A stretch of DNA of 64,000 bases from a virus (taxonomy: Duplodnaviria; Heunggongvirae; Uroviricota; Caudoviricetes), in IMG/VR virus record IMGVR_UViG_3300042894_003937, one strand, 5' to 3'. Made by a program: the position numbers and the translations under genes. A model generated the notes under the pieces. That model searched no databases. It saw nothing but the letters and a program-made list of their open reading frames with translations, and was not told the origin of the DNA. Numbering within the stretch: position 1 is the stretch's first letter; each line of letters begins with the position of its first letter. Positions 24,354-56,358 of the stretch are shown here, one piece after another.

Positions 24354-24385
24354 AAAAAAACCCACTATTAAGCGGGTTTGTTTTT
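24354..24385. terminator. hairpin aaaccc-N10-gggttt plus T-run (variant of the 18869 hairpin)
   Basis: aaaaaaacccactattaagcgggtttgttttt. Confidence 0.45.
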
Positions 24386-24935: not shown

Positions 24936-24985
24936 AATCTTTTATATTTTTTTATATTAAGCGGTATTTCATAATTTTTTTAATT

Positions 24986-25390
24986 CTAATTGAAGATCAA
25001 ACCATTTAATGTAGAAGGATCCACTTTACAATCTCTTTCATCGAATGCCATAAGAATTTTATCACCTTCGTGTAATACACCGATAAGTTTATCATCCATT
25101 CCTTGATCAATAAGTTCTACTACAGAGAATTTCTTCTCACCATTTACATATTGTTTCCAAAATGTTTCAGCTCTTGGTCTAGTTAATCCAAATCCTGTCT
25201 CGTACGATGGATTACCATAAAGACACCATAACACTGGTTTATTATTTTCTTCAATCCATTCAGAAACAGTTAGACAAAAATCACCATGTTCTTCTGGTCC
25301 AAATGTATGTGTAGAAAACATCTTACCATTTGGGTTTTGATACTTAACTTCTTCATTAGTGAAGTTTTCAAATAATTTTACGTATTTCAT
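24986..25390 (-). CDS. hypothetical protein with MKYVKLFENF leader
   Basis: 134 aa. Confidence 0.5.
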   Translation of the reverse strand: MKYVKLFENFTNEEVKYQNPNGKMFSTHTFGPEEHGDFCLTVSEWIEENNKPVLWCLYGNPSYETGFGLTRPRAETFWKQYVNGEKKFSVVELIDQGMDDKLIGVLHEGDKILMAFDERDCKVDPSTLNGLIFN

Positions 25391-25667
25391 AATTGTTTAT
25401 TTTTTTTTCTTATAGTATATATTATTTAATTTCTACTATATTTTTATTCTTTAACACAATAAATTGAGATAGGATAAAGCCAGTGACATTTAGTGGAGAT
25501 AGAGTATAACATATCACCACCTAACATCTTTGTCATCTTGTGAATCAAGAGAATATTTTTTATAGTATATATATTATAGAAATTAAAATTTATTGATAAA
25601 AAGTGTGAATTATATAAAAATCGTTTTTTTTAATAAATATATACTTTTATAAAAAATAATTAAAATT

Positions 25668-26171
25668 ATGAAACACATTAAAGAATTTAATCAAATCAAC
25701 GAAGGTAAAGGTGATTGGATAAGAACAATACAAACACTTTTTGATAAATCTGACGTAGGATCTTTTTCTGGTGATGAAATGGATTTCGAAATGTTTCAGA
25801 AATGGGATAATTTATTACCATATCTTGATCAATATGGTGAAATAAATAACTCTAAGCCTTTAGGTCCTATTGAAGAAACTATTAGACATTTTGAAAATAA
25901 ACAATTAAAGAAAGAATTTATTCCAATGCAAGATATTTCAAAAGAAGAGAAGGAAATCAAAAAGAGAGAAGGCACTCCAAAAGTTTATACTGCCTTCGGA
26001 GAACATGAATGGAATTTAGATAGTTATAATAAAGAATATCAAGATGGTGTTAAAAAACTTAGAAAAGCTTGGATGAGTTTCTTAAAAGAGGCGGGTACAT
26101 TTGCGGGAAAGGCTCATTTTGATATTGATATTGAACCTGGTAGAAAAGTTATTGGAGTACCCAGAAAGTAA
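25668..26171 (+). CDS. hypothetical protein with MKHIKEFNQ leader
   Basis: 167 aa. Confidence 0.5.
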   Translation: MKHIKEFNQINEGKGDWIRTIQTLFDKSDVGSFSGDEMDFEMFQKWDNLLPYLDQYGEINNSKPLGPIEETIRHFENKQLKKEFIPMQDISKEEKEIKKREGTPKVYTAFGEHEWNLDSYNKEYQDGVKKLRKAWMSFLKEAGTFAGKAHFDIDIEPGRKVIGVPRK

Positions 26172-29297: not shown

Positions 29298-29516
29298 TTA
29301 TATCAATTTATTTAATTTTTTATCTCTTTCTACTTCTAAGGTAGCATCTTCAAATTGTCCCAATAAAAGATAGTATGAATCATTATCATAGTTATCATTG
29401 ACTTTAACAATTAAATTAGCATCAAACTTTGAAGTACCAATATAGTCGATTACTTTATATACTTCACCTTCACTTAATCGGTAACCATCCTTTTTTATAC
29501 ATCTTACCCACTTCAT
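29298..29516 (-). CDS. small protein with tail motif (..VERDKKLNKLI)
   Basis: 72 aa. Confidence 0.5.
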   Translation of the reverse strand: MKWVRCIKKDGYRLSEGEVYKVIDYIGTSKFDANLIVKVNDNYDNDSYYLLLGQFEDATLEVERDKKLNKLI

Positions 29517-32661: not shown

Positions 32662-33048
32662 TTACTCTAATATTTTATTTAATTGTTTATCTCTATATAA
32701 TTCAATAGAGAATAATTGTTTTATATTTTCTTTTGTTAGTTCGATATATTGTTTACCTTCCTTAAGCATTGCTCTATCTTTTATTCTTCTTAAAGCTTCT
32801 TTAACATCTACTGATAATGATAATGTAGAATTATCAACACCTTCTTTTAATACTGGTTCTTGCCATACAGGATGAGTATAAACTTTATAGTTATCTATAT
32901 CAAATGAGAGTTTAAGTGTTTCGAGTGATATAATAGGTTCTGTTGAAAGACTTATATTTTGGTGGAGTTTTTCTAGGTCTTGATCTTTCGTTTCTAGATT
33001 GATAGTATATGGAAGTTGCATCATTGTTATGATTGCGTCTATTGTCAT
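32662..33048 (-). CDS. hypothetical protein with tail motif (..YRDKQLNKILE)
   Basis: 128 aa. Confidence 0.5.
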   Translation of the reverse strand: MTIDAIITMMQLPYTINLETKDQDLEKLHQNISLSTEPIISLETLKLSFDIDNYKVYTHPVWQEPVLKEGVDNSTLSLSVDVKEALRRIKDRAMLKEGKQYIELTKENIKQLFSIELYRDKQLNKILE

Positions 33049-33236
33049 AGTATTTGATTTAGTTTATCTTCTCTTAATTCTTGTACAGTAGCAAAGTTTA
33101 CTTTGTGATACCGAGAAGAGTTCCAAGGTATATCAGTATGGTTTTCTAATTGGAATGATTGTGAGGAGGAAAGTATTACCTTATACCATTCTCCTTTTAT
33201 CAGAAATCTTGAACCTCTTACACACAGAACTTTCAT
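33045..33236 (-). CDS. Fam-B small protein (MKVLCV.., ..ELREDKLNQIL)
   Basis: 63 aa. Confidence 0.5.
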   Translation of the reverse strand: MKVLCVRGSRFLIKGEWYKVILSSSQSFQLENHTDIPWNSSRYHKVNFATVQELREDKLNQIL

Positions 33237-34239: not shown

Positions 34240-34686
34240 ATGAAACATTTAAAAAAATTTAATGAAAGTTTAGAACCAGTTGAGATCGATGAGTTAAAAG
34301 ACTTCTGTGAGACATCACTCGCTTATCTATTAGATGATGGGTATCAAGTTAGTGTATATGAATCAAGATTTAAAGATGTATCTGTAAGAGATAAAGTAAA
34401 GTATCCTGAGAAAGAACATACAATTGTAAGTTTGGGTTTAAAAGGAAAAATGGGTTATAGGTTATTCGATTGGAATGATATAAAAGATTATTACATACCA
34501 TTTCTTCAAATGTTAGTAAGAAGATATGAATTACTACCTTTCGGAATGTATGATAAGATTTGTTATTTTAATACCGAAGGTGGTTTTAGATATTTATCAT
34601 TAGATCAAGTTATAAATGATAGGGTTGGCTCAGAACTTGGTAGTCGTTTGTGGGGAATAAATATAATGATAGTAGATAAGATATGA
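34240..34686 (+). CDS. Fam-A paralog (start at MKHLKKFNES)
   Basis: DFCETSLAYLLDDGY..NDIKDYYIPFLQML; the ORF-track start upstream is unlikely. Confidence 0.7.
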   Translation: MKHLKKFNESLEPVEIDELKDFCETSLAYLLDDGYQVSVYESRFKDVSVRDKVKYPEKEHTIVSLGLKGKMGYRLFDWNDIKDYYIPFLQMLVRRYELLPFGMYDKICYFNTEGGFRYLSLDQVINDRVGSELGSRLWGINIMIVDKI

Positions 34687-35123
34687 AACATTTGAAAAGA
34701 TATAATGAAAGTTTACAACCTAATGAGGTTGACGAGTTAAAAGACTTCTGTGAGACTTCATTGGCTTATCTATTAGATGATGGATATAATGTTGATGTTT
34801 CTATAAGAAATTCAGTAGGGTATCCAGGAAATAATCAAGTAATCGTAAGTTTGGGTTTACCTACATATAGTGAAAGTGGTTTACTGGATTATAAAAGGTT
34901 CCATTGGAATGATGTAAAAGATTATTACATACCATTTCTTCAAATCTTAGTAAGAAGATATGAGTTGCTGCCTTATAGAGGTGAGGGTTATGTTTATTTT
35001 AATGGTGAGATGGGATTTGACTATTTCTCATTAGATGAAGTAATAGATGATACGGTCAGTGGTATGAATCACATTGGTAGTAGTTTATGGGGTATAAATA
35101 TAAAAATAGTAGATAAGATATAA
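34683..35123 (+). CDS. Fam-A paralog
   Basis: MKHLKRYNES..DFCETSLAYLLDDGY..NDVKDYYIPFLQIL; ATGA overlap. Confidence 0.7.
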   Translation: MKHLKRYNESLQPNEVDELKDFCETSLAYLLDDGYNVDVSIRNSVGYPGNNQVIVSLGLPTYSESGLLDYKRFHWNDVKDYYIPFLQILVRRYELLPYRGEGYVYFNGEMGFDYFSLDEVIDDTVSGMNHIGSSLWGINIKIVDKI

Positions 35124-35179
35124 ACTATCTCCTTGAGACATATACACCCAGACTCAAACTTTTTAAAAATAATTTTAAT

Positions 35180-35190
35180 ATATACATTAT
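35180..35190 (+). promoter_or_regulatory. ATATACATTAT box overlapping the ATG
   Basis: Recurrent start-proximal motif. Confidence 0.35.
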
Positions 35191-35965
35191 GAAATACTGT
35201 AGAAAACAAAGTGTAAGTTCAGGAAGAACTTTACGCTATATTAAAAGTTTTAATCAAACACTTGAGAACTACTCAACTGTTGCCAATACATTTAGAGGAT
35301 TACGACCATCTATTAAAAATCTTGCCATATTAACCGCACAGAACCCACATGGTGAGCAACATTCAAATGAGTTTAACAAATCTGCGAACCAAGAACTTGA
35401 AGAGGTTCTATCTAAAGCTAAATTAGGTTATAAAAAGGTTAAAGGTTCGTATGTTCAAAAAGAGAAATCATTTATTGTTTTTAATATACCTTATGCAGTA
35501 GCTATAGAAATTGGTACAAGATTTAAACAAGATAGTATTATCTATGGTGAGATTAACGATAAACAAAGTTATGATGATGATGAATCAATGTTATTTAAAA
35601 TTATAGGAACTGATCAAAGTAAGCCAGAAGAATATAAGAAAGTTTTGGCAGAAACTAGTGTTTTTGTTAGTAGAGATAATGCGGATGATTTTTATAGTGA
35701 GATTAAAGGTAGGAAATTTATATTACCATTTTATGATGTGATTGATCAATCTGATGATCCTACGATACTTAATATAAAAAAGGATTATACTGGAAGTAAA
35801 TGGAAAGGTGGTAAAGCGGAACCTACATCAACAACAACTTATCGACTTCCTGATTGGTTATTAAAATGGCAGCAAGATCAAAGGATAAAAGAACATGAGG
35901 AAAAACATTCAATGTACAATAAATCCAAAAAACCTTTCATTAGAAAGGTAACTGGTGATAACTAA
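35189..35965 (+). CDS. hypothetical protein
   Basis: 258 aa. Confidence 0.5.
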   Translation: MKYCRKQSVSSGRTLRYIKSFNQTLENYSTVANTFRGLRPSIKNLAILTAQNPHGEQHSNEFNKSANQELEEVLSKAKLGYKKVKGSYVQKEKSFIVFNIPYAVAIEIGTRFKQDSIIYGEINDKQSYDDDESMLFKIIGTDQSKPEEYKKVLAETSVFVSRDNADDFYSEIKGRKFILPFYDVIDQSDDPTILNIKKDYTGSKWKGGKAEPTSTTTYRLPDWLLKWQQDQRIKEHEEKHSMYNKSKKPFIRKVTGDN

Positions 35966-35979: not shown

Positions 35980-37230
35980 ATGATACAATCTATAATAGGA
36001 ACAAGTTTTACCGGAGGTTATAATCCACCTTTACCATTTGACATAACTGCTAACTGGAGTTTGACAACACCTGCTGTTGTAGATGAGGTATCTTTTAAAA
36101 CTTTTCTAGAAAGTGGTGAAGATGGAGATGATGAGACAAATGAGTTAACAGGTGTAGTCATTACTGACTTCTTACTTGAAGGAAACAGGTTAACTTGTAA
36201 TCTTTCTGCTAGTGGTTATAATTTTTACCTTAGTTATACAGAAGTTTCAGTTGTAAATAGTATAGGTAATATTGTAGGATTAGAAAATTTGAATTTAAGT
36301 GTTAATCAAATAACATCATTCGATCCCTCTATTGCATTACCTAGTTCATTACTTAGTTTAGCTTTAGGTGTCAATCAAATAACATCATTCGATCCCTCTA
36401 TTGCTTTACCTAGCAGTTTACAACAATTAAGTTTAAGTGATAATCAATTAACATCATTTGATCCCTCTATTACTTTGCCTAGCAGTTTACAACAATTAAG
36501 TTTAAGTGATAATCAATTAACATCATTTGATCCCTCTATTGCTTTACCTAATTCATTGTTAGAATTAAGTTTAAGTTATAATCAAGTATCGATGAACTTT
36601 ACCCCAAGTTTACCATTACCCAGTTCATTACAATATTTAAGCTTGGATAATTCTAATATAGTTACATTTGATCCAGCATATGATTTGCCTAGCAGTTTAC
36701 AACAATTAAGTTTAAGTGATAATCAAATAGTGAATTTTACTCCAAGTAACTCGCTTGGGGGTGGATTACAATATTTAGATTTAAGTGATAATCAAATAGT
36801 AACATTTGATCCTGTTGCAGCATTACCAAGTTCATTACAATCAATATTCTTAAACCGCAATCAAATTGTGACATTTGATCCCACTATAGCTTTACCTACT
36901 GGATTAACAAGTTTAGATTTAACTGGTAATCAAATTGTGACATTTGATCCCACTATAGCTTTACCTACTGGATTATTATACTTACAATTAGCGGATAATC
37001 AAATTGTTACATTTGATCCTAGCATTACGTTACCAAATTCATTAATTGTTTTAAATTTAGTTAATAATCAAATGACAACAGCTGGTTATACTGCATCTGA
37101 ACCATGGGCAAATGCTATGTCTGTGATTCCTGGGAGAGGTAGTGTATATTTTGGTGCTAATCCAAATTCTGTAAGTGGAACAAATCTTGGAACAATATTA
37201 CAATCTAAAGGTTGGAGTGTAAACGTATAA
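35980..37230 (+). CDS. leucine-rich-repeat protein (about 14 LRRs of LSLSDNQLTSFDPSIALPSSLQQ type)
   Basis: Regular 22-residue LxxLxLxxNxL repeats; N-terminal 16 aa identical to the next gene. Confidence 0.7.
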   Translation: MIQSIIGTSFTGGYNPPLPFDITANWSLTTPAVVDEVSFKTFLESGEDGDDETNELTGVVITDFLLEGNRLTCNLSASGYNFYLSYTEVSVVNSIGNIVGLENLNLSVNQITSFDPSIALPSSLLSLALGVNQITSFDPSIALPSSLQQLSLSDNQLTSFDPSITLPSSLQQLSLSDNQLTSFDPSIALPNSLLELSLSYNQVSMNFTPSLPLPSSLQYLSLDNSNIVTFDPAYDLPSSLQQLSLSDNQIVNFTPSNSLGGGLQYLDLSDNQIVTFDPVAALPSSLQSIFLNRNQIVTFDPTIALPTGLTSLDLTGNQIVTFDPTIALPTGLLYLQLADNQIVTFDPSITLPNSLIVLNLVNNQMTTAGYTASEPWANAMSVIPGRGSVYFGANPNSVSGTNLGTILQSKGWSVNV

Positions 37231-37244
37231 AAATAAAGTATAAT

Positions 37245-37982
37245 ATGATACAATCTATAATAGGAACAAGTTTTACAGGAGGTTATAATCCACAAGGTCC
37301 ATCATTTAGACTTATGTTTACAGATATAAGTTTTGCTAATACCCTAGTAGGGGATGCGTCAAATGTTAATGATTGGAATACATATTTAGATTTACCTCTT
37401 TTGGGTACACCTTTCACTAGTGTAAACGTTAGTGGTGATGAAGTGTCTTTGTATGGCGGAGTAGGTATTACATTAAAAACTTCTGCATTTACTATTAATC
37501 TAAAAAAAAATGAAGTTCCTTATTTAGTTTCTGTAGATGATGAAAGTGGAGTGATTGTGGAATTACAAGAAGAAACTTTTTCAAGTCAATCATTATTAAC
37601 AACTGTATCTTTACCACAACTAATTACTGCAGATATTTTCTGTTTTAATGGTTGTGACAATTTAGCCATTATTAATTTACCACAGTTAACAACTGCAGGT
37701 GTTGGCTGTTTTAATACTTGTGACAATTTAGCCATTATTAATTTACCACAGTTAACAACTGCAGGTGCTGGATGCTTTGCTGGTTGTAGTTTAACAACAG
37801 TAACATTACCTCTCTGTACAAACTTAGGTGGCGGTGTTTTAAATGATAATGTGTTTTCAGACATAATTGGAAACACAATTTCTTTAACTATACCTGAGTC
37901 TTTAATGACTTGTAATTCAGGAAATCCAGATGGTGATATTCAATACTTGCAGGCAAATAACACAGTAACAATAATAAGTTAG
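37245..37982 (+). CDS. repeat protein with Cys-containing LRR-like repeats (INLPQLTTAG.GCF..C.NL); start placed at MIQSIIGT
   Basis: N-terminal 16 aa and about 45 bp upstream identical to the 35980 gene. Confidence 0.6.
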   Translation: MIQSIIGTSFTGGYNPQGPSFRLMFTDISFANTLVGDASNVNDWNTYLDLPLLGTPFTSVNVSGDEVSLYGGVGITLKTSAFTINLKKNEVPYLVSVDDESGVIVELQEETFSSQSLLTTVSLPQLITADIFCFNGCDNLAIINLPQLTTAGVGCFNTCDNLAIINLPQLTTAGAGCFAGCSLTTVTLPLCTNLGGGVLNDNVFSDIIGNTISLTIPESLMTCNSGNPDGDIQYLQANNTVTIIS

Positions 37983-37985
37983 ATT

Positions 37986-38050
37986 CATTTAACAGAACTC
38001 TTGTAGTTCTTCTTTGAAGGTGTCACCTACTAAATGGTTTTAAATGTTTC
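37986..38050 (-). pseudogene. degenerate fragment of a Fam-A 5' end (MKHLKPF-frameshift-GDTFKEELQEFC)
   Basis: Near-identical to the first about 70 nt of gene 39100..39636 apart from a 9-nt deletion that causes a frameshift and stop. Confidence 0.45.
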
Positions 38051-38055
38051 ATATA

Positions 38056-39099: not shown

Positions 39100-39636
39100 T
39101 TATTTAAAGAATGATTTTAATTTGGTTAGAACAGATTTATTTTCTTGTTTATATCCATCTATTATAAATTCAAACTCTGTTATATAAGATTCTAAAACAT
39201 CATCAGTATCAGTATCATAATAAAGACCTGATTTTATATCATCATTGATTAGTTTATTTACTTGGTAAAATAATTCTGTTTTACGATGAGGCCAGTGTTG
39301 TCTAGCAGCTTCTAAGTCACGTGTTACTTCTATTATGACATCTTTTTTATTTTTACGAGTATGTCCCATTTGTCTAGCATATTGTTTAAGTTCATATTGA
39401 TTAGTAAGTCTGGTTAAGAATGGTATCATATGGTCTTTTATATCGGACCATAATCTAGGATTCTCATTTAATTCTAGTGTAAGTTTGAAACTTAAACCTA
39501 AACCACTTCTAACTAACGTTATAGAAATATTTAATTCTTCATCTAATAGATAAGCTAGATTCATTTCACAGAAGTCTTGTAGTTCTTCTTTGAAGGTGTC
39601 ACCTACTGCTTCATTGAATGGTTTAATATGTTTCAT
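39100..39636 (-). CDS. Fam-A paralog
   Basis: MKHIKPFNEA..DFCEMNLAYLLDEE..SDIKDHMIPFLTRL. Confidence 0.7.
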   Translation of the reverse strand: MKHIKPFNEAVGDTFKEELQDFCEMNLAYLLDEELNISITLVRSGLGLSFKLTLELNENPRLWSDIKDHMIPFLTRLTNQYELKQYARQMGHTRKNKKDVIIEVTRDLEAARQHWPHRKTELFYQVNKLINDDIKSGLYYDTDTDDVLESYITEFEFIIDGYKQENKSVLTKLKSFFK

Positions 39637-39638
39637 AT

Positions 39639-40865
39639 TTAGAGAATGAATTTATTTACAATACTAGATATTTGACTGGCTCCATTTTTACATATATCAT
39701 GGTGTTCTACTCCTGGTATAACTGTTAAAGATGTTTTATCATTAGGAAAATTACCTTTGTCATCTTTTTCAGCTTGTTCCTTAGTAAGTACACCTGAGTC
39801 TGTTTTACCAGCTCTAATAATTAAACACTCAACACTATCATCTAACTTTTCTATTTCTTTTGGATCTCTCTGTAATGATCCAACCATACCAATCGCTTGA
39901 CTGTGTAAGAAATCTATATTATATTTTCTATCTCCATTTTCTATATCACAATAGTAGTTCTTTTTATCTGATGAATCAAATTTATCTTCTACTATCCAAA
40001 CATTATTAGGATTTTTAATACCTGATGAAGTAATAATTGATTTGATGTATTCAATAGATGTTTTACCATCATTTGTTGGTATTTCTTCTTGCTTCACACC
40101 TTTTTTCCAAACTGATGATGGATTAGTTTTACTAGGATAATGTTTACCTACTCTTTCTGTGAATGGTTCATCTATGAATTCAATTACAAGTTCTTTTGTT
40201 GCTCTCCATTTTTCATAATCTGATTGTAATTTGAATTCAAAATCTGATAGTTTTGCTTTACTAAAATCAAAATCTGATGGATTTTTTTTATGTACTTCTG
40301 GTTTATATGTATATTTGAATTGAATAATTTCGTCTTTTGTTGGATTAGTTTGAGAATCTTTTTCATAAAAAGGAAAGGTAACACAATTATACCTTCTCAT
40401 TGTGTTATTTTTCATTGTTGTACTTACATATTTATCAGGTGCTATTGCATTAGGAGCGGCAGCATCTATACATATAAATTTACCTTTGAAATCTGATCCT
40501 AATTCTTTAATTATCCAAAATCCAAAAGTTGTACCCATTGAAAATCCTAGAATAGATAAATTAGGATATGATTTTAATTGTTTTGCGATTTCCTTACATC
40601 TATCTTTACCATTATCTTTAACGTTCTCATCATATGAAAATGTTATTAAGTTAAATGTTTCTTTTAACAGAGAAGCAAGTACCTCGTAATCATCTATTGG
40701 ATTACCACCACCACCTGGAATTAAAAGAAGTGTTGGTTTATTTTTATCATTATCTGATTCTATTGGATAAGGTTGAATAATAAATTTCTCAGGTGATAAT
40801 TTTTCTTTATTATCTTCTAATATAAGTCTAAATTGTTTATATAACTTTAAGTGTTTCATAATCAT
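39639..40865 (-). CDS. alpha/beta hydrolase (GFSMG nucleophile elbow) carrying a Fam-A-type leader (MIMKHLKLYKQF)
   Basis: 408 aa; LLLIPGGGGN..ILGFSMGTTFG. Confidence 0.6.
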   Translation of the reverse strand: MIMKHLKLYKQFRLILEDNKEKLSPEKFIIQPYPIESDNDKNKPTLLLIPGGGGNPIDDYEVLASLLKETFNLITFSYDENVKDNGKDRCKEIAKQLKSYPNLSILGFSMGTTFGFWIIKELGSDFKGKFICIDAAAPNAIAPDKYVSTTMKNNTMRRYNCVTFPFYEKDSQTNPTKDEIIQFKYTYKPEVHKKNPSDFDFSKAKLSDFEFKLQSDYEKWRATKELVIEFIDEPFTERVGKHYPSKTNPSSVWKKGVKQEEIPTNDGKTSIEYIKSIITSSGIKNPNNVWIVEDKFDSSDKKNYYCDIENGDRKYNIDFLHSQAIGMVGSLQRDPKEIEKLDDSVECLIIRAGKTDSGVLTKEQAEKDDKGNFPNDKTSLTVIPGVEHHDICKNGASQISSIVNKFIL

Positions 40866-40873
40866 TAATTTTT

Positions 40874-41098
40874 TTATTCTAATTCATCAAGAAATTTTTT
40901 ATAGTCAAACTTAATCTTCTCTTTTTTGAATTGTTTAACCATATCATTGGCTATCTCTATTCTATTTTCTTTATCTTTGACTTTCTTTAGTATATCAATT
41001 ATACCTGATACCATTTGGTAATAGTTATTATTACCAAGCTCTGCTTTTATTTCAGATTTAGATTCTTTTACTTGTGAGTATGTTTTTAAATGTTTCAT
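40874..41098 (-). CDS. small helical protein with MKHLKTY leader
   Basis: 74 aa. Confidence 0.45.
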   Translation of the reverse strand: MKHLKTYSQVKESKSEIKAELGNNNYYQMVSGIIDILKKVKDKENRIEIANDMVKQFKKEKIKFDYKKFLDELE

Positions 41099-41108
41099 AG
41101 TTTATATA

Positions 41109-42437
41109 TTAAATTATATAAGAGGTAGGATTTAAACTTCCGTAACTTCCATACCCTAAATCAGATATTAAGTCAACTCTATCAGTAAAATCATTATACT
41201 TTATTTTTATTAGTTTAGTTGTAGGGTTTGGTATTTTATTAGGATCTATATCCCAAGATCCTGTTGCATATGTATTAGTTGGTGCCTCACCATTAAGATA
41301 AATATATCCATCTGAAAAAATTGAATTATCATCTGTTATTAATGTATCTATTGGAATGGATTCTTCGATAGCTAACGTATCAATATTCATTCGCACTAAA
41401 CTTCTATGTGAAGTAGTAGTACCCATTATAGCATTACTTATTATTAACTTATCATTATAAACTCCCATCCAGTGTGGCAAAGGTATAAATGATGGAGTTC
41501 CTGCATTTATAGTTTGACTATAAATTTGTCTTTTTCTAATACCATCTAATCCCCATACTTCCATTCCCATTTGACTAAATCCTGAACCGCCGGCAGCATT
41601 ATTAACAATAGGTATGTAAATCTCATCATTATAAATTAAATATGAGGAAAAAGTTCTTACTCTTCTAGATGGAACTGATAAGGTTCCAGTTATTAGTAAT
41701 TCACTATATGTTCCAAGTGTTAAATCCATTTTTAAAATAATACCATTGGAAGTAGTTAATGATGGCATTATATATACATAATCTTTATAAGCTATAATAT
41801 CAGTTGTTTGTTTATTCAAATATTTAGCGGGTAAAGTAAGTGTGATAATATTATCAATATTACCAGAATCTATTCTAGCGACAGTAGTTGTGGCAGATCT
41901 TGATGCTAAATAAAGGTAACCTTTATAGAAACACATACCGTGTACTAGATTTATATTAGATGTTATAAGTTTATATTCAATTTTATCAAACTGAAGAATA
42001 AGACCATTTTTTAATTTACAATTTGTTAATTTTAAAAAGTAAGTATCTGAAGGTCCAAAATTACCACATAAATAAAAATCAGAACCATTTCTAACAATTT
42101 CATTACTGTTTCTAACATTTATACTTGGATCCAAATAACTTTCTAAATCTATTCTACGAAAAGAATCTGTATAATATAATAGCTCACTGCTATTTACTAA
42201 AGTAGATATATAAAAGTCTTCTGGTATATCTTTAAATATACCTCCCCCTGAGTTACTACTCGCGACTGCATTATTAGCCATTTGTAAAGAGTTTTCATAA
42301 ATCTTGAGTCTTCTAAGATGTTCTTCTTTTTGTTTTTGTTGAATTTCTAACGCATCTACTAAATATTTTGTTTCTTTTAAATCTCTCTCCCTCTTTTCTT
42401 CTTCAATTTTCATAAGAATCTCTTCAATTGATTTCAT
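41109..42437 (-). CDS. hypothetical protein, N-terminal coiled coil plus beta-rich domain (structural?)
   Basis: 442 aa. Confidence 0.55.
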   Translation of the reverse strand: MKSIEEILMKIEEEKRERDLKETKYLVDALEIQQKQKEEHLRRLKIYENSLQMANNAVASSNSGGGIFKDIPEDFYISTLVNSSELLYYTDSFRRIDLESYLDPSINVRNSNEIVRNGSDFYLCGNFGPSDTYFLKLTNCKLKNGLILQFDKIEYKLITSNINLVHGMCFYKGYLYLASRSATTTVARIDSGNIDNIITLTLPAKYLNKQTTDIIAYKDYVYIMPSLTTSNGIILKMDLTLGTYSELLITGTLSVPSRRVRTFSSYLIYNDEIYIPIVNNAAGGSGFSQMGMEVWGLDGIRKRQIYSQTINAGTPSFIPLPHWMGVYNDKLIISNAIMGTTTSHRSLVRMNIDTLAIEESIPIDTLITDDNSIFSDGYIYLNGEAPTNTYATGSWDIDPNKIPNPTTKLIKIKYNDFTDRVDLISDLGYGSYGSLNPTSYII

Positions 42438-42504: not shown

Positions 42505-42516
42505 TATATATACTTT
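42505..42516 (+). promoter_or_regulatory. TATATATACTTT box abutting the ATG (variant of the recurrent motif)
   Basis: Motif variant. Confidence 0.3.
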
Positions 42517-43131
42517 ATGAAATACTTAAAATCATTTAATGAAGGTTCTACTACGACTGATGTAGATTATTATAAATCCGCTATACATTACTTCAATAAT
42601 AATTTGAATAATGATAGAGCATTAGAATATATCAATAAAGCCATTGAGTTATCAGATAGAAAAAGTAATCCATACTATTTCGCTTTAAAACAAATGATTG
42701 AGGAAAAAGGACCTGAACCAAAGTTTGAAAGTAATGAGCAACAGATAGAAGCTTTAAAAGATTTATGTGATACTAATCTAGCTTATCTAAAAGATGATAA
42801 TTTCATTGTAAGGGTTGTTCCTTCTAGACCTGATAGTTTCTATATATTTATTGGATCAGATGGATTTAATCCAAGTGGTGAAAGATATTATTTTAGTTGG
42901 TTATCTGTAAAGAATCATTTAATACCATTCTTTCATTACCTACTAAAAGATTTTAAGATACAAGATAATCCAAAGGGTACTAATAACAGAGGTGTATCAT
43001 TTGTTAGTTATGGTACTTTTAATGATACTAATGAGTATGTTAAGGTTGATCAAATCTTAAATGATGAGATAGAAGATGATAAACAAATAGCGGGTATATC
43101 TATTTATATTAAGTCGGAATACTTTATTTAA
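42517..43131 (+). CDS. Fam-A paralog with N-terminal helical (TPR-like) extension
   Basis: MKYLKSFNEG..DLCDTNLAYLKDDNF..LSVKNHLIPFFHYL. Confidence 0.6.
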   Translation: MKYLKSFNEGSTTTDVDYYKSAIHYFNNNLNNDRALEYINKAIELSDRKSNPYYFALKQMIEEKGPEPKFESNEQQIEALKDLCDTNLAYLKDDNFIVRVVPSRPDSFYIFIGSDGFNPSGERYYFSWLSVKNHLIPFFHYLLKDFKIQDNPKGTNNRGVSFVSYGTFNDTNEYVKVDQILNDEIEDDKQIAGISIYIKSEYFI

Positions 43132-46339: not shown

Positions 46340-46568
46340 TATTTAATAGTTGATTTAATTTTTGTTCTCTTATATTTTGTATAGTCATAAAGTAGGTAAT
46401 TATTTTACCACTTTCATAACCATAAAGTGAAGGCCAACCTCTCACACCACGATCATTTAGAATGTCTAGGTTAAAACCAGTTAAATCACTTATTAGTTGG
46501 TATTTCTTACCTTTAGTAAAGTTAGCAAATCTGTGATCAACACATACTACCCAATCACCTTTTTTCAT
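46332..46568 (-). CDS. Fam-B small protein (..NIREQKLNQLLNNE)
   Basis: 78 aa; stop overlaps the folD start. Confidence 0.5.
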   Translation of the reverse strand: MKKGDWVVCVDHRFANFTKGKKYQLISDLTGFNLDILNDRGVRGWPSLYGYESGKIITYFMTIQNIREQKLNQLLNNE

Positions 46569-46792
46569 ATCAATTTATCTAATTGTTGTTCTCTCCACTG
46601 TTCTATGGTAAGAAAGTATTTTCTATCTAAAGCATATTCTGTACCTTCTTTAACAAAGAAGTATCTAGTTTTTAGAAATGGTTCAGAATCTTCTGAGTAA
46701 TCATTTCTAGATTTTTCAGTTACATCAATCCATTCACCTAACTTAATACGAAGAGTTCTTAAATGAGTATTTGATACACATATTACTTTCAT
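46565..46792 (-). CDS. Fam-B small protein (MKVICVSNT.., ..EQWREQQLDKLI)
   Basis: 75 aa; 5' 27 nt plus 13 nt upstream identical to the gene at 47138..47383. Confidence 0.55.
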   Translation of the reverse strand: MKVICVSNTHLRTLRIKLGEWIDVTEKSRNDYSEDSEPFLKTRYFFVKEGTEYALDRKYFLTIEQWREQQLDKLI

Positions 46793-47136
46793 ATACCTAG
46801 TTTATTTAATTTCTTCTCTCTTGTCTTATCTATACGATTCAGAAAATCTGGTATATCAGGAACTTCGTGATATTCCCACCACTCTGAACCATCATACTCA
46901 CCTCTTGTTGTCCAAGTACCGTCTTCATACCAAATCATACCATCTAGTTCTTGGCCACCATACCCGTTATTATACTCTCTATCTATATCAGATAAAAACT
47001 GATTATATTCATCTTCGGTGTATCCGGTTGTAAGTGAGAACCTTTCATCTTCATAATCTAACTCTATATAAGCACATTTGATTACTTTACTTTTGGTGTG
47101 TCTAACAAACTCTTCTTTTGCATTTATTATAGCCAT
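46789..47136 (-). CDS. small acidic protein with tail motif (..TREKKLNKLGI)
   Basis: 115 aa. Confidence 0.5.
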   Translation of the reverse strand: MAIINAKEEFVRHTKSKVIKCAYIELDYEDERFSLTTGYTEDEYNQFLSDIDREYNNGYGGQELDGMIWYEDGTWTTRGEYDGSEWWEYHEVPDIPDFLNRIDKTREKKLNKLGI

Positions 47137-47137
47137 A

Positions 47138-47383
47138 TTATATTCCCAGTTTTTCTAATTGGTTATTTCTCCATTTTTGTTTGTAATCTTCTGCCTTGAC
47201 AAAATATCCAGGTGGTATCCATCTTTGTTCTTCCTCAACCCAATTTGAGAAAGTTTCCCAATTATCTATATCAGTTTGCATTACTAATCCAGATAATGTA
47301 TATTCTTTACCTATTACTAGTAATGGTTCGCTTCTTTTATAATTATTTATTACGATAGTATTTGATACACATATTACTTTCAT
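47138..47383 (-). CDS. Fam-B small protein (MKVICVSNT.., ..KWRNNQLEKLGI)
   Basis: 81 aa. Confidence 0.55.
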   Translation of the reverse strand: MKVICVSNTIVINNYKRSEPLLVIGKEYTLSGLVMQTDIDNWETFSNWVEEEQRWIPPGYFVKAEDYKQKWRNNQLEKLGI

Positions 47384-47607
47384 ATACCTAGTTTATCTAA
47401 TTTATCTTGTCTATCTTGTTGAATATCTGCTTCAATAAATTCACCTGTGTGGTTTATAAAGATGTTACACGTATTCGAGAAACCTTTATCACAATTGTGT
47501 TTAACCCCATAGAAGTTTTTACCAATATGAAATACAACACCTTTTACGTTATAGATTTCGGATATCCTTTTGGTTATGATTACGTTATCTCCTATTTTAA
47601 AATTCAT
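47380..47607 (-). CDS. small protein with tail motif (..QDRQDKLDKLGI)
   Basis: 75 aa. Confidence 0.5.
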   Translation of the reverse strand: MNFKIGDNVIITKRISEIYNVKGVVFHIGKNFYGVKHNCDKGFSNTCNIFINHTGEFIEADIQQDRQDKLDKLGI

Positions 47608-47845
47608 CTAATAGTTCTTCTAATTGTTTATTTCTCCATTCTGGTAAAGATATGAAATCTTGTTGTAATACAGTAACCGCATAATTTTTACCATCAATAA
47701 AATCTATTACAATATTTATCTTATCTCCGCTCAGTTGATAATAAACAGGTTGTAATCGTGCTACTTCAAATTGGTCACCTATATTGAAATAATAATCTAA
47801 ATGGTTGAATGAATACAAACATTCTTTAATACATACTACTTTCAT
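47597..47845 (-). CDS. Fam-B small protein (MKVVCIKE.., ..EWRNKQLEELLDEF)
   Basis: 82 aa. Confidence 0.5.
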   Translation of the reverse strand: MKVVCIKECLYSFNHLDYYFNIGDQFEVARLQPVYYQLSGDKINIVIDFIDGKNYAVTVLQQDFISLPEWRNKQLEELLDEF

Positions 47846-48200
47846 CTAATATACTATTTAATTTATTATCTCTTAGTATTTGTGTAAAGTTTACAAAAGT
47901 ATAATCATCCCAATCACCATAGACATCATAGTCCCTATTAGACCTAGAATATAGTTGGTATTCAAATCTTACACCAAATTCCATACTTATTATTCTTTTC
48001 CTTACTAAAATGATAGAACTATGTTTCGTGGATAGAAATTGAGTATATTTTTCAAACATATCTTCTTCTTCACTTTCTTTCCAATCCATCTTCTGATAAG
48101 TAATGCCTTCTTGTTTACTTATCTCGATAAATTGTTTTATATGTTCGAATGTATCACATATAAATGCGGTATTACCGTTTTCTATTATTTCTTTAATCAT
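47826..48200 (-). CDS. hypothetical protein with tail-like motif (..ILRDNKLNSILDESSMY)
   Basis: 124 aa. Confidence 0.5.
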   Translation of the reverse strand: MIKEIIENGNTAFICDTFEHIKQFIEISKQEGITYQKMDWKESEEEDMFEKYTQFLSTKHSSIILVRKRIISMEFGVRFEYQLYSRSNRDYDVYGDWDDYTFVNFTQILRDNKLNSILDESSMY

Positions 48201-48411
48201 TTAAAATCTGATTTATTTTATTATCTCTTAATTGTTGAATTGTAATAAAGCTTTCTTTCCGAAACTGACTTTGTATATTATTATCTGCAATAAGTAAATA
48301 TCCATGTTCATTGATGGATTCCACCTCATATATTTCACCTACTGTTAGAAATCTATAGTGTATAGTATTCGGATTTTCATTTGCCGCAGTTGATATACAT
48401 TTAACTTTCAT
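48193..48411 (-). CDS. Fam-B small protein (MKVKCIS.., ..QQLRDNKINQILND)
   Basis: 72 aa. Confidence 0.5.
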   Translation of the reverse strand: MKVKCISTAANENPNTIHYRFLTVGEIYEVESINEHGYLLIADNNIQSQFRKESFITIQQLRDNKINQILND

Positions 48412-48622
48412 TTAAAATCTGATTTATTTTATTCTCTCTTACCTCTGCGGTCGCATCTTCGAACCATGTATGAATATCATATGTACATTCAAAATCTGCA
48501 TCATTTGTTAGTATGATATAGGTAAGATTACTCCAATCTGATGTCCAGTAACGTTTGACCTCATATACTTTTTGATACGTTAGATTGACTGCCAATGGAT
48601 TCACACACTTAACCCAGTTCAT
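48401..48622 (-). CDS. Fam-B small protein (MNWVKCV.., ..EVRENKINQILNES)
   Basis: 73 aa. Confidence 0.5.
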   Translation of the reverse strand: MNWVKCVNPLAVNLTYQKVYEVKRYWTSDWSNLTYIILTNDADFECTYDIHTWFEDATAEVRENKINQILNES

Positions 48623-53104: not shown

Positions 53105-53116
53105 TATATATACTTA
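53105..53116 (+). promoter_or_regulatory. TATATATACTTA box abutting the ATG
   Basis: Motif variant. Confidence 0.3.
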
Positions 53117-53701
53117 ATGAAACATTTGAAAACATTTGATGAGATTACCGAATCTTATAATAAACCAAGAGCTGGTGGTAAGAAACGCTGGTCGGTCAAA
53201 TATAAGAAGTCAATAAATTGCTCTAATGCAAAGGGGTTTTCTCAAAAGCAGTATTGTAAGAGGAAAAGAAAAGGTGGTTCTTATAAGAATGAGTCTGTTG
53301 AATCTGTGATGGGTGGTTTAATTCAAAAAGTTGGTAAGGTTATTGAAGGTGTTGATGAATTGTGTGAACAACATTTAGTTTACTTACAGGATGATGGGTT
53401 TAAATATTTCATTGATATAAATGAAGATCTAAACAGTGATTTATATAATCAAGGTGATGTTATCTTTATTTTAGAGAGAAATCGAGAAGAATTTTCTTGG
53501 GATCAGGTCAAGGATAGGTTTATACCATTTTTGATTATGTTGAAAAGGGATTTCAAACCGTTATCAGATATTGAATTCGCTTTGGGTACTAACTGGAGGT
53601 ATGCGACTAATAATGAGAAGTTTGAAATAAATCTTCTTATAAATGATGCTATTGATTCGTATAGTAACATAGTAGAAATAATTATAAAGATAAACGTATA
53701 A
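53117..53701 (+). CDS. Fam-A paralog with basic N-terminal insertion
   Basis: MKHLKTFDEI..ELCEQHLVYLQDDGF..DQVKDRFIPFLIML. Confidence 0.6.
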   Translation: MKHLKTFDEITESYNKPRAGGKKRWSVKYKKSINCSNAKGFSQKQYCKRKRKGGSYKNESVESVMGGLIQKVGKVIEGVDELCEQHLVYLQDDGFKYFIDINEDLNSDLYNQGDVIFILERNREEFSWDQVKDRFIPFLIMLKRDFKPLSDIEFALGTNWRYATNNEKFEINLLINDAIDSYSNIVEIIIKINV

Positions 53702-53702: not shown

Positions 53703-54212
53703 TTATATATCTAATTTTACTTGATTTTTCTTTACCTTTATAATAACACCAATACTTATCAAATCTGGATCTGGTGTCCACTTATAATATATATGATCCT
53801 TCCAATAACCTTCTGAATCAAATACATCATCATTAATGACTCTGGCATAACTGAAATTTTTACTAACATTTACAAATGAATAATCGTTCTTTTGACGGTA
53901 TCTAAATCTAACACTTGGTTCACGTGAATCTACATCACCATCGAAAAAAGTACCTATATCATATCTATTAGATAATAATTGTAAGAAAGGAATATAATAA
54001 TCCTTTACATCATCCCATTTAAAAAACTCTCTACCATTATTCTTTGCTAAAAAAATACCAAACTGTCCCGTAGTTGCCCTTGCACGTGGATCGTCACCGC
54101 CCCTAATAGTAACGTTGAAGCTCTCATCCATTAGATAAGCTAATGATGATTCACAGAAGTCTTGTAGGTCTTCTTGGGTTACTCCCTCGTTAAATCTTTT
54201 CAAATGTTTCAT
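53703..54212 (-). CDS. Fam-A paralog
   Basis: MKHLKRFNEG..DFCESSLAYLMDESF..DDVKDYYIPFLQLL. Confidence 0.7.
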   Translation of the reverse strand: MKHLKRFNEGVTQEDLQDFCESSLAYLMDESFNVTIRGGDDPRARATTGQFGIFLAKNNGREFFKWDDVKDYYIPFLQLLSNRYDIGTFFDGDVDSREPSVRFRYRQKNDYSFVNVSKNFSYARVINDDVFDSEGYWKDHIYYKWTPDPDLISIGVIIKVKKNQVKLDI

Positions 54213-54604
54213 TTTAGAAAGAATACTATTTTTTCGACAATCTTTTCTTGTGGAAGATTTTCTAATTCATCATATGAAAGATAAAGTTCTTTGCTATAAT
54301 TACCCACAAAATTTCGATTTGAAACTTGTACTATAATGAATTTATCAGAACCATCTTCTAAACTATTTATTTCATAAACATTATTAAATCTATGTAAGAA
54401 TGGTATAATCTGATCTTTGATTTCTGACCACGGTCTACCGTGTCCATTAGATTGGTAAAGGTATAGTGTAACAAATAAATCTGATCGGTCATTATCAATT
54501 CTAACTTCTAATCCTTCATCCATTAGATAAGCTAGATGGGTTTCACAATAATCTTTTAGATCATATTCGTTTATACTTTCATTAAATCTTTTCAAATATC
54601 TCAT
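54209..54604 (-). CDS. Fam-A paralog
   Basis: MRYLKRFNES..DYCETHLAYLMDEGL..SEIKDQIIPFLHRF. Confidence 0.7.
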   Translation of the reverse strand: MRYLKRFNESINEYDLKDYCETHLAYLMDEGLEVRIDNDRSDLFVTLYLYQSNGHGRPWSEIKDQIIPFLHRFNNVYEINSLEDGSDKFIIVQVSNRNFVGNYSKELYLSYDELENLPQEKIVEKIVFFLK

Positions 54605-54642
54605 AAACTATATATAAATAAAAGTGATTTAATTTTTTAATA

Positions 54643-54670
54643 TATACATTATAAAAATAATATACATTAT
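54643..54670 (+). promoter_or_regulatory. two tandem ATATACATTAT boxes immediately 5' of the ATG
   Basis: atatacattataaaaataatatacattATG. Confidence 0.35.
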
Positions 54671-54878
54671 GAAAAACTTACTAATCTTTGAAGACTTTAA
54701 AGAGGTTCTTATTGTAGAGAAAAATGTGCCGACAAATTCTGAATTGTGGAATACTTGTAAAGCTTGGGCTAAGTCGAAGTATGATGTATGGCCATCTGCG
54801 TATGCTTGTGGTGCTGCTGCAAAAAGATATAAGGCTAAAGGTGGTAAGTGGAAAAAAGCTAAAAAGAAAAAGAAATAA
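54669..54878 (+). CDS. small basic protein (Lys-rich tail KWKKAKKKKK)
   Basis: 69 aa; paralogous N-terminus (M.N.LIFEDF) with the next gene. Confidence 0.45.
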   Translation: MKNLLIFEDFKEVLIVEKNVPTNSELWNTCKAWAKSKYDVWPSAYACGAAAKRYKAKGGKWKKAKKKKK

Positions 54879-55171
54879 TGGAACATATATTATTATTTGA
54901 ACAATTTATTTTAGAGGAAAAGAAAACTAAAGGTGGTTTAGACAAATGGTTTAAAGAAAAATGGGTAGATATATCTAAAACCAATGCTGATGGTTCACAC
55001 CCACCTTGTGGTCGTGATGATGCTGACAAAGGTGGTTATCCAAAATGTAGAAAGGTTAGAGTTGCTGCAAGGATGTCTGCAAAAGAGAAAAAAGCATCTG
55101 TTGCAAGAAAGAGAAAAGTAGAGAAAACCGGTTCGAAAGGTGAAGGTAGAAAACCAAACTATGCAAAATAA
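54878..55171 (+). CDS. small basic protein (K/R-rich C-terminal half)
   Basis: 97 aa; MEHILLFEQF; ATAATG junction. Confidence 0.45.
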   Translation: MEHILLFEQFILEEKKTKGGLDKWFKEKWVDISKTNADGSHPPCGRDDADKGGYPKCRKVRVAARMSAKEKKASVARKRKVEKTGSKGEGRKPNYAK

Positions 55172-55254: not shown

Positions 55255-56358
55255 ATGAATAAATTAGATAAACAATACACAGACTTGCTACTAGACATTT
55301 TACATAATGGTCAAGCAAAAGGTGATAGAACCGGTACAGGAACAATCTCAGTATTCGGTAGACAGATCAGACATGATATGAAGGATGGTTTTCCTTTACT
55401 AACAACCAAAAAGATGCCATTCAAAACAATCGTAACAGAATTGTTATGGTTTTTAAATGGTGATACTAATATAAAGTATCTAGTTGATAATGGTTGTAAC
55501 ATTTGGAATGGTGATGCTTATAAAAACTATGTCACAAAATTCAAAGAGTATTGGAGTGGAAAAGGATATGATGTACCTACAATGGAAACCTTCGTCGATA
55601 GAATTAAGAATCAACAAGGATTTTCTGAAGAGAATGGTCAGCTAGGTCCAATTTACGGAGCTCAGTGGAGATCTTGGAGAGTTGGTAAGGGAATTGAAAC
55701 TACATTAAAAACTGAAGATGGTGAATCTATATATGAGGCAGGTTCAATGTATATTGACCAAATTGCAAACCTAATCAAAGATTTAAAAACAAATCCAGAT
55801 TCTAGACGATTGATGGTTTCTGCTTGGAATGTGGGAGAATTGGAGAATATGGTTTTACCACCTTGTCATTATGGATTTCAAGTTTATACCAGAGAGTTAG
55901 ATGCAGAGACTAGATATAACATCTGGTTTAATAACAATTATGAAACAGGTATGGAAAGATTCTTTGATCCTAACAAACTACCTGATTATGATAATACATA
56001 TTATATACCGACACCTACCAGAGCAATCTCACTTATGTGGAATCAACGTTCAGTAGATACATTCTTAGGATTGCCATTTAATATAGCTTCTTATGCTCTT
56101 TTATTAGAGATTATTGCAAGAGAAGTGAATATGGTGCCGGATCAATTGATTGGAAATTTAGGTGATGTTCATTTATATTCTAATCATATTGAACAAGCTA
56201 AGGAACAGATTGCGAGAAAAGGATTGGATTTACCTAGTATAATTATAAATAAAGTTATGAAGAAAGCAGATGATTCATTACCTTTATACAATATAACTGA
56301 CTTTAAATTAAATGATTATAAGTCACACGAAACAATTAAAGCAAAATTAAGTAATTAA
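55255..56358 (+). CDS. thyA: thymidylate synthase (ThyA-type, with insertions)
   Basis: DRTGTGT, catalytic LPPCH, WNQRSVDTFLGLPFNIASYALLLEIIA and GD.HLYSNH are collinear with ThyA; 367 aa, so about 80-100 aa of inserts. Confidence 0.92.
   Translation: MNKLDKQYTDLLLDILHNGQAKGDRTGTGTISVFGRQIRHDMKDGFPLLTTKKMPFKTIVTELLWFLNGDTNIKYLVDNGCNIWNGDAYKNYVTKFKEYWSGKGYDVPTMETFVDRIKNQQGFSEENGQLGPIYGAQWRSWRVGKGIETTLKTEDGESIYEAGSMYIDQIANLIKDLKTNPDSRRLMVSAWNVGELENMVLPPCHYGFQVYTRELDAETRYNIWFNNNYETGMERFFDPNKLPDYDNTYYIPTPTRAISLMWNQRSVDTFLGLPFNIASYALLLEIIAREVNMVPDQLIGNLGDVHLYSNHIEQAKEQIARKGLDLPSIIINKVMKKADDSLPLYNITDFKLNDYKSHETIKAKLSN

Follow-up and report, generated by a model that had tools for sequence, protein, structure and literature searches.

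Why should proteins of different folds, encoded side by side in a phage genome, begin with the same few residues? The question is raised by positions 39,100-41,098 of a 64,000-nt stretch of caudoviricete DNA (IMG/VR record IMGVR_UViG_3300042894_003937; this whole stretch is referred to below as the window), which has 30% G+C and densely arranged short open reading frames (ORFs). Here three consecutive ORFs open with a leader of the MKHLK type, which an initial annotation had read as a candidate propeptide or virion-targeting signal akin to the capsid-targeting sequence (CTS) of phage T4. We find that the leader is selected as a peptide, not as DNA, and our tentatively preferred reading, to which we give a probability of about 0.45, is that it would be a T4-CTS-like address peptide docking late-made accessory proteins to the prohead core, leading to their encapsidation and probably their ejection.

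Leader-bearing genes at positions 39,100-41,098

The three carriers are:

39100-39636 (-): paralog of Fam-A, the protein family described below, 178 aa; leader MKHIKPFNEA at 39607-39636; match to a leader-free Fam-A hidden Markov model (HMM), E=5.9e-29
39639-40859 (-): alpha/beta hydrolase, 406 aa, with a GFSMG nucleophile elbow; leader MKHLKLYKQF at 40830-40859
40874-41098 (-): orphan ORF, 74 aa; leader MKHLKTYSQV

The ORFs named in the initial annotation (39100-39636, 39639-40865 and 40874-41098, together with those at 25668, 18930, 24384 and 24986) exist and start as described there. Read from the ATG at 40865, the hydrolase ORF begins MIMKHLKLYKQF, this ATG adding 'MI'; because 28 of the 35 listed homologues open with M[KR][YF][LI]K, its start is probably 40859 (MKHLK) rather than 40865. 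Hydrolase homologues mostly read MKYLKLYE.F, and among those listed the leader is kept (28/35) down to 36% identity. Foldseek matches of the hydrolase in the PDB are esterases and thioesterases (E about 1e-7). The 74-aa ORF has no Pfam or PHROG family, and a promoter-like motif, TTTAATATATA (41103-41110, -), ends 4 nt before its ATG.

A conserved decapeptide opens about one gene in five

Six-frame translation of the window revealed 35 matches of M-[KR]-[YH]-[LIV]-[KRN], against a chance level of 1.15 +/- 1.03 (maximum 4) in 200 second-order Markov simulations. The leader opens 31-33 window ORFs, or about one gene in five (~18-22%), and only three of the 35 matches depart from placement at the first ATG, two being internal in fused proteins and one a remnant. 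Carriers additional to those first annotated include 4687-5163, 5165-5557 and 35189-35965, the last with a split leader.

The consensus is M-[KR]-[YH]-[LI]-K-x-[FY]-[EN]-x-[FYS], ten residues long. In a sample of 120 carriers chosen on residues 1-7 only, and less biased for residues 8-10, information content is at background past residue 10, such that residues 1-10 form the conserved block; within it conservation extends to residue 8 (E/N) and residue 10 (F/Y) but is weak at residue 9. The leader had been described as ending in F-[NE]-E, which is true of the window, where 19 of 31 leaders have E9, but not of the less biased sample, conservation of E9 being limited to the Fam-A subtype. The peptide is charged or amphipathic, with a hydrophobic face formed by residues 3/4, 7 and 10, and leads into an acidic linker: residues 11-30 have a net charge of -2.9, compared with -0.4 among other proteins (p=5e-6).

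Selection acts on the peptide

The initial annotation had suggested comparing synonymous with nonsynonymous variation in the first codons. Across 16 homologous pairs of genes from the window and related contigs, the proportion of synonymous differences (pS) was the same for leader codons 2-10 (0.409) as for the remaining codons (0.414), whereas that of nonsynonymous differences (pN) was about halved (0.122 in the leader vs 0.224 in gene bodies; pN/pS 0.30 vs 0.54), which indicates selection at the peptide level. Synonymous positions vary among leader copies (AAA/AAG, TAT/TAC, TTA/TTG, TTT/TTC, GAA/GAG) and replacements are conservative (K/R, Y/H, L/I/V, F/Y/I). Major codons occupy 190 of 262 leader positions 2-9, compared with 177 expected from the bodies of the same genes, and a small nucleotide-level bias remains in that leucine is encoded only by TTR and arginine only by AGR codons. 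The DNA upstream of 33 leader copies is unconserved and could not be aligned. Synonymous sites are thus not conserved at least as strongly as nonsynonymous ones, as they would be in a nucleotide-level element, and with these sites free a DNA-level recombination site is ruled out as the main cause of the leader.

The leader is a module apart from its cargo

Most window carriers are, from their sequences, paralogs of one ~140-aa Fam-A domain with the motifs L.DFCE..LAYL.D.GF and W..VKD..IPF. A Fam-A HMM built with the first 12 residues dropped, and hence without the leader, matches 23 carrier ORFs with 28 domains. The remaining 8-9 window carriers have no Fam-A match and, once trimmed of the leader, no similarity to one another apart from the pair at 4687 and 5165. 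The earlier description of the carriers as unrelated proteins consequently fails for the 23 Fam-A ORFs and holds for the hydrolase, the DUF3293 protein and the lipoprotein family, which are clearly of different folds. Pfam and PHROGs offered no family for the carriers, and the leader is absent from those window genes identified as ThyA, PurN, UDG, RpiB, HD, Band_7 or LRR. Four loci bear on the relation between leader and fold:

34240-35123 (+): two adjacent Fam-A genes (34240-34686, 34683-35123), leaders MKHLKKFNES and MKHLKRYNES
42517-43131 (+): leader MKYLKSFNEG, ~70-aa spacer, Fam-A domain (residues about 75-200)
53117-53701 (+): leader, basic 60-aa spacer, Fam-A domain
18930-19451 (-): lipoprotein-family protein, leader MKYLNDFNKF, lipobox ...SPFQSC

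Residues 1-8 of Fam-A are predicted to be disordered by AlphaFold2 (AF2) yet are the best-conserved columns of the alignment. In the model of 34683-35123, for example, the overall predicted local distance difference test score (pLDDT) is 85.5, while residues 1-8 fall below 50 and have no secondary structure. In 42517-43131 and 53117-53701 the leader is still N-terminal although the Fam-A domain lies 60-70 residues further in. The leader is thus neither packed nor confined to Fam-A, as a structural element of that fold would be.

Judged from sequence, the lipoprotein family is the clearest case of grafting of the leader onto a pre-existing family. The protein encoded by 18930-19451 has 22 extra residues, comprising leader and acidic linker, ahead of its lipoprotein signal peptide, and five homologues (P0278, P0281-P0283, P0286) are without the leader and open directly with the lipoprotein signal peptide. 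A role of the leader as a signal peptide is ruled out, since the real signal peptide of 18930 sits downstream of it; the leader also has no hydrophobic core and no twin-arginine of the Sec, SPII or Tat type, and the true lipoprotein signals of the window differ from it.

A virus feature of AT-rich huge phages

An IMG/VR scan for exact matches to a degenerate 26-nt pattern recovered at least 120 loci with the leader, on contigs of 4-640 kb and 21-32% G+C, usually with several further leader ORFs each. Among the matches listed, 242 distinct IMG/VR carriers formed 167 BLAST clusters; 13 are Fam-A. When 185,579 bacterial and archaeal species, represented by one genome apiece (596 Gb, AT-rich species and Bacteroidota included), were scanned with the same pattern, there were 22 matches, several of them internal to a conserved protein and others on low-G+C contigs resembling mis-binned phage DNA. 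By this distribution in sequence collections the leader is a virus feature rather than a host feature. Its near-absence from prokaryotic genomes argues against a general initiation requirement of AT-rich bacteria or of bacteria without Shine-Dalgarno (SD) sites, and weakens the initial annotation's alternative of a translation constraint in an SD-less host.

Among 50,697 phage records, megablast and tblastn found no match to the region, to Fam-A or to the hydrolase. Only chance-level leader matches were found in Tenacibaculum phage PTm1 (~150 of 225 kb) and Flavobacterium phage immuto (first 50 of 160 kb), and none in sampled ~40-kb regions of LR756501 (735 kb) and Lak-A1; none of the cultured phages checked is a carrier. 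No description of the motif was found in the literature on CTS and huge phages, including full-text searches with motif strings.

From position 22,231 on, the window is identical to a 111-kb metagenome contig of the Joint Genome Institute (compared over a 20-kb locus where the ORF layout matches and a Fam-A protein is identical), and close relatives of window genes lie on contigs of 515-649 kb. The window probably belongs to a huge phage of Bacteroidota, more precisely Flavobacteriia. Pointers to this host are Bacteroidota-type lipoprotein signal peptides, TAnnTTTG promoter-like motifs, and a ThyA closest to that of a Flavobacterium phage and of the 635-642-kb phages LR745206 and LR756502. A Bacteroidetes host has been predicted for those huge-phage genomes, LR756502.1 being a curated 642-kb 'Mahaphage' (PMC7162821). 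An origin from a giant virus is ruled out by T4-type portal, baseplate and capsid genes together with the bacterial lipoprotein signals. The remaining window genes are auxiliary (ThyA, PurN, UDG, HD, Band_7, RpiB, LRR and collagen-like fibre proteins), and no head gene lies within the 64 kb.

The thymidylate synthase itself (55255-56358, +) has a ~100-residue insertion, giving 367 aa compared with a 266-position model; over its full length it aligns only with LR745206 and LR756502, and its best partial match is in a cultured Flavobacterium phage (62%).

Head genes and a promoter-like motif in carrier genomes

Carrier loci include a gp6-like baseplate wedge gene and a T4-type portal gene (PF07230, E=2e-56), whose product shares 80% identity with its LR756502.1 counterpart. 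The LR756502.1 genome (642 kb) was assembled here from 14 overlapping pieces (L158-L171). The leader opens 89 of its 970 ORFs, in arrays, and these fall into 81 BLAST clusters; 112 of 120 six-frame matches have at most 30 in-frame residues upstream. Leader genes are concentrated in the first 100 kb and at 380-426 kb, with smaller groups near 560-600 kb, and a common variant, MKHLKxYK[IL]FE[SD], has two extra residues (e.g. 10332-16154, 20622-25572, 419029-421860). Pfam families among the 89 proteins are limited to phage lysozyme, SET, GNAT acetyltransferase, HNH nuclease and a weak GCN5L1 match, and the tagged set of the window and LR756502 together holds no recognised housekeeping or structural gene.

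Near the LR756502 portal gene are genes for a T4-type TerL and a Gp23 major capsid protein (E=4e-28). A 699-aa ORF is a candidate protease-scaffold protein, with a sub-threshold N-terminal match to Peptidase_S77 and the motifs EFDHPD and VSSRAAG; its equivalent in PTm1 is annotated 'prohead core scaffolding protein and protease'. The N-terminus of the capsid protein has an I-N-E site at the expected boundary, which we take to parallel the propeptide of T4 gp23. Two leader ORFs lie directly upstream of the LR756502 portal gene, and one is likewise placed in another carrier locus (L085).

Many first-in-operon leader genes are preceded by a promoter-like motif, a T-rich stretch followed by WATATATA (TATATATA), that ends 4-6 nt before the ATG. 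WATATATA occurs upstream of 10 of 30 leader genes compared with 10 of 105 others (p=0.003), and at least ten carriers have the motif 4 nt from the ATG. Copies in the window include:

41103-41110 (-), 42505-42512 (+), 53105-53112 (+), 54609-54616 (-), 59918-59925 (+), 35177-35184 (+) and 3395-3402 (+): promoter-like motifs

In LR756502 the same motif stands 20-27 nt upstream of the ATGs of the genes for portal, protease-scaffold and capsid protein. Genes of a second class have TAnnTTTG motifs of the host type. WATATATA resembles the T4 late promoter, TATAAATA, and by this analogy we infer a putative late promoter; the 4-nt spacing suggests nearly leaderless mRNAs.

What the leader may do

We posit that the leader is a portable, unstructured N-terminal address peptide of an AT-rich, T4-related lineage of huge phages infecting Bacteroidota. 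Tagged proteins would be produced late, alongside the head proteins, and would attach through the hydrophobic face of the tag (residues 3/4, 7 and 10) to the scaffolding/protease core of the assembling prohead, thereby becoming enclosed in the capsid. The cargo, mostly small, acidic and fast-diversifying accessory proteins with a few enzymes, would then enter the next host with the DNA, and tag and acidic linker may be trimmed by a gp21-like prohead protease. What we only infer is that tagged proteins dock to the prohead core, are packaged and cleaved, and are then ejected.

Several observations weigh against this prohead address. The carriers are acidic (median pI 4.9), and T4 internal proteins bind DNA. 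The T4 prohead protease gp21 cleaves after L/I-x-E (PMC9026906), and the leader has no fixed [LI]-x-E: most copies have Glu at 8 or 9, P3 varies, and only LFE/IFE-type variants fit. The cleavage 'after FNE' proposed at first is accordingly not borne out, E9 being conserved in the Fam-A subtype only. In the candidate protease of LR756502 the Peptidase_S77 match scores 20.2 bits, below the Pfam threshold of 27. Head genes of the window's own genome lie outside the 64 kb, and no contig is common to the Fam-A matches and the 120 best portal matches. The leader is not intrinsic to T4-type head assembly, because the sampled regions of LR756501, Lak-A1 and PTm1, which have the same type of head module, are without it. 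One carrier is a lipoprotein precursor, which is normally exported. Finally, a packaging signal would hardly be expected on so many proteins (89 of 970 ORFs in LR756502, ~18-22% of ORFs in the window): carriers amount to tens to ~90 per genome, compared with about five in T4.

The leader could even be a genome-wide 'ejectome' tag, by which ~9-20% of genes (~90 proteins in 642 kb) would be loaded via one signal and injected into the next host; we consider this possible, on balance somewhat doubtful. Such cargo would include the Fam-A arrays, lysozyme, SET methyltransferase, GNAT acetyltransferase, HNH nuclease and the alpha/beta hydrolase, and would be by far the largest co-injected set of phage proteins known. 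If packaging and ejection are correct, sequence alone would be enough to catalogue the proteins that uncultured huge phages inject, a sizeable share of 'dark' genes and tandem paralog arrays would be partly explained as pre-made effectors in an arms race with host defence, and a ten-residue handle would be at hand to load foreign proteins into Bacteroidota phages. Even if the destination is not the capsid, a virus-specific, peptide-selected N-terminal motif over more than 100 families is, for bacterial viruses, a sorting code of an uncommon kind and one open to test.

That the leader docks its carriers to something other than the prohead (a phage or host chaperone, an adaptor or protease, a host hub protein, or another phage-built compartment), giving them a shared fate in folding, stabilisation, timed degradation or localisation, appears unlikely. 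A portable, disordered and peptide-selected leader would fit such a partner equally well, and 89 carriers among 970 ORFs are easier to accommodate with a cytoplasmic partner than within the space of a capsid. DnaK-like (Hsp70) ORFs, recognised from N-terminal sequence only, do occur in two carrier loci (L023, L029), and the binding preference of Hsp70 recalls the basic-flanked hydrophobic residues of the leader. However, the analysis turned up no candidate partner, and the resemblance to the T4 CTS, the leader ORFs adjoining the portal gene and the promoter-like motif shared with head genes would be left unexplained.

It is less likely again that the leader has no sorting function, being the ancestral N-terminus of a huge, fast-diverging Fam-A-like superfamily that spread to other genes, as these were newly captured, by recombination of a promoter-plus-start cassette and was kept as a working start. 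This would suit the 23 of about 34 window carriers that are Fam-A, the weak Fam-A-like matches among LR756502 ORFs, the second domains of older fusions, which retain only decayed leaders, and the compact unit formed in at least ten carriers, where the promoter-like motif is just 4 nt away from the ATG. One leader variant has indeed moved between unrelated genes, as seen in the following carrier:

35189-35965 (+): DUF3293 protein, split leader MKY[CRKQSVSSGRTLR]YIKSFNQ

A 39-nt insertion (35195-35234, +) follows leader codon 3 of this gene, as the single copy in the window, and recurs in Fam-A genes of other contigs (e.g. L157 719-760) at ~93% DNA identity between unrelated flanks, giving the leader pattern MKY[C.KQSVSS.RTL.]Y..; no copy was found in IMG/VR. 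It forms a hairpin, GUAAGUUC-loop-GAACUUUAC, of -10.5 and -13.7 kcal/mol (z -2.9 and -2.4), the copy in the DUF3293 gene being that of -10.5 kcal/mol and z -2.9. The 'recombination linker' of the initial annotation is therefore retained for this one variant and not as the main force, synonymous sites being free. Spread as a mere cassette is further contradicted by the halved pN at equal pS, which implies active purifying selection on the peptide, by synonymous sites too diverged for recurrent recent recombination, by hydrolase orthologues that keep the leader down to 36% identity, and by leaders on operon-internal genes with no promoter of their own.

A translational role is improbable. Here initiation or early elongation in an SD-less host, possibly on phage-modified ribosomes, would be enhanced either by the N-terminal peptide as it emerges or by the opening codons of late mRNAs that are nearly leaderless. 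The TATATATA motif ending 4-6 nt before many leader ATGs would allow such transcripts, TTR-only leucine and AGR-only arginine keep the start AT- and purine-rich, and huge phages encode ribosomal proteins (S21, S1) proposed to favour phage mRNAs (PMC7162821). Yet synonymous sites of the leader are no more constrained than those in the rest of the genes, and the conserved classes are those of amino acids (Y/H at 3, L/I/V at 4, F/Y at 7) rather than of AT content. The motif is moreover unused in bacterial genomes, Bacteroidota included, and capsid and portal genes, which are the most highly expressed, and recognised enzymes have no leader, while operon-internal genes do.

That the leader is simply the first helix or strand of its carriers' own folds is very improbable and a domain-internal structural helix is rejected: although in the hydrolase model (AF2 pLDDT 83) residues 2-21 form a continuous helix of lower confidence that takes in the leader, the same leader is disordered at low confidence in Fam-A, is common to an alpha/beta hydrolase, a DUF3293 protein, a lipoprotein precursor and orphans, is dispensed with by lipoprotein homologues, and can lie 60-70 aa from the Fam-A domain.

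Other carriers and neighbouring genes in the window

Further leader-bearing loci are:

8410-17025 (-): tandem array of 13 Fam-A genes, leader on each
8410-9237, 9665-10525, 11012-11944 and 14645-15490 (-): two-domain Fam-A proteins of the array
53703-54212 and 54209-54604 (-): two Fam-A leader genes
59930-61261 (+): three consecutive Fam-A leader genes (59930-60340, 60342-60788, 60791-61261)
24384-25390 (-): two orphan ORFs (24384-24935, 24986-25390), leaders MKYVKLFEEF and MKYVKLFENF
25668-26171 (+): orphan ORF, 167 aa, leader MKHIKEFNQI
4687-5557 (+): two leader ORFs (4687-5163, MRYIRTLESL; 5165-5557, MRYLKLFEDN)
54669-55171 (+): two small basic proteins with degenerate leaders outside the core pattern (54669, MKNLLIFEDF; 54878, MEHILLFEQF)
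38023-38052 (-): remnant leader ORF of nine codons, MKHLKPFSR*, adjoining the HD-domain gene on its downstream side

Two fusions of the array, 11012-11944 and 14645-15490, contain complete internal leaders at 11468-11497 and 15056-15085, and the fusion with its internal leader is kept in metagenome homologues (VVKKD[GD]MKHLKMF[KN]ES); the internal Met-leader could be a site of internal initiation or of processing. Promoter-like motifs lie 4 nt before 53117 and 54604. The orphans 24384-24935 and 24986-25390 have no Fam-A match and, after trimming of the leader, no similarity to each other. Proteins 4687-5163 and 5165-5557 are weakly similar (E=0.005) and have no Fam-A HMM match; by their sequences they may be remote relatives of Fam-A. 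The ORFs at 54669 and 54878, initially counted as carriers, exist as annotated but have only degenerate leaders. The remnant at 38023-38052 appears to be the decayed beginning of a leader gene that has been lost.

Other N-terminal features were observed among neighbouring genes. Only the first 35 residues of a 426-aa DUF6576 protein (3407-4687, +) match LR756501.1 (530871-530972, 71% identity), and judging from this match they may be another transferable N-terminal module. The adjacent ORFs 21800-22390 (-) and 22497-24305 (-) have an identical 25-residue N-terminus, the longer one continuing into collagen-like repeats, and probably encode alternative tail fibres that attach through a common module. 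Two consecutive leucine-rich-repeat proteins (35980-37230 and 37212-37982, both +) have the common N-terminus MIQSIIGTSFTGGYNPPLPFDITAN. A second family of small proteins (~70-80 aa) with an MKV.C[IV] start forms a tandem array at 46565-48622 (-) and occurs also at 8189-8413, 29298-29516, 33045-33236 and 62772-62978; the ORFs preceding its members have similar C-terminal ends, ...DNK[IL]N.IL.

Comparison with known systems

The closest parallel is the T4 CTS found on IPI, IPII, IPIII and the Alt propeptide. The first ten residues of IPIII suffice for packaging, with residues 4 and 7 mattering for targeting and residues 8 and 10 for processing (PMC9026906), and the internal proteins of T-even phages are diverse anti-defence proteins with only the CTS in common (PMC3012670). 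Like the CTS, the leader is an N-terminal block of about ten residues with an MK start on unrelated, fast-evolving accessory proteins, here the non-homologous Fam-A, hydrolase, DUF3293 protein, lipoprotein family and orphans; it keeps hydrophobic or aromatic residues at positions 4 and 7 and an acidic residue near positions 8-10, and carrier genomes have genes for a T4-type portal, Gp23 and a candidate gp21-like protease. The analogy drawn in the initial annotation is indirectly backed by length, MK start, positions 4 and 7 and the T4-type head genes of LR756502.1, but not by a fixed cleavage site. The sequences are only loosely alike (T4 IPII and IPIII begin MKTYQEFIAE and IPI MKTFKEFTST, compared with MK[YH]LKx[FY][EN]x[FY]) and too short for a statistical test, and the leader differs further in its mostly acidic cargo.

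N-terminal segments that direct proteins into the prohead are also represented by the packaging signal of phage P1 DarB and by the long propeptides of head or ejection proteins of phiKZ, 201phi2-1 and SPN3US (PMC9024508, PMC5694885). In SPN3US, gp53 and gp54 have identical N-termini but diverged bodies, and the propeptide of gp47 is followed by a transmembrane segment, an arrangement that recalls ORF 18930 (PMC9024508, PMC5694885). In contrast to the leader, with its one decapeptide consensus over more than 100 families, these signals are 20-130 residues long and specific to a protein or family, with no genome-wide consensus.

Export signals of the Sec, lipoprotein and Tat types are N-terminal too, and the leader of 18930 resembles the extension seen in the extended signal peptide region of autotransporters. 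Unlike such signals, the leader is charged and followed by an acidic linker, and carriers other than 18930 have no signal peptide. Cargo-loading peptides of encapsulins and encapsulation peptides of microcompartments are likewise short terminal peptides, portable and often amphipathic; a flexible linker connects them to unrelated cargo enzymes, and the inner face of a protein shell recognises them. As their sequences and shells are different, and cellular, the parallel is one of analogy only. The kind of signal that we propose is therefore already known from the T4 CTS, P1 DarB and the propeptides of giant phages, and what sets the leader apart is its single consensus, its genome-wide scale and its presence on more than 100 families.

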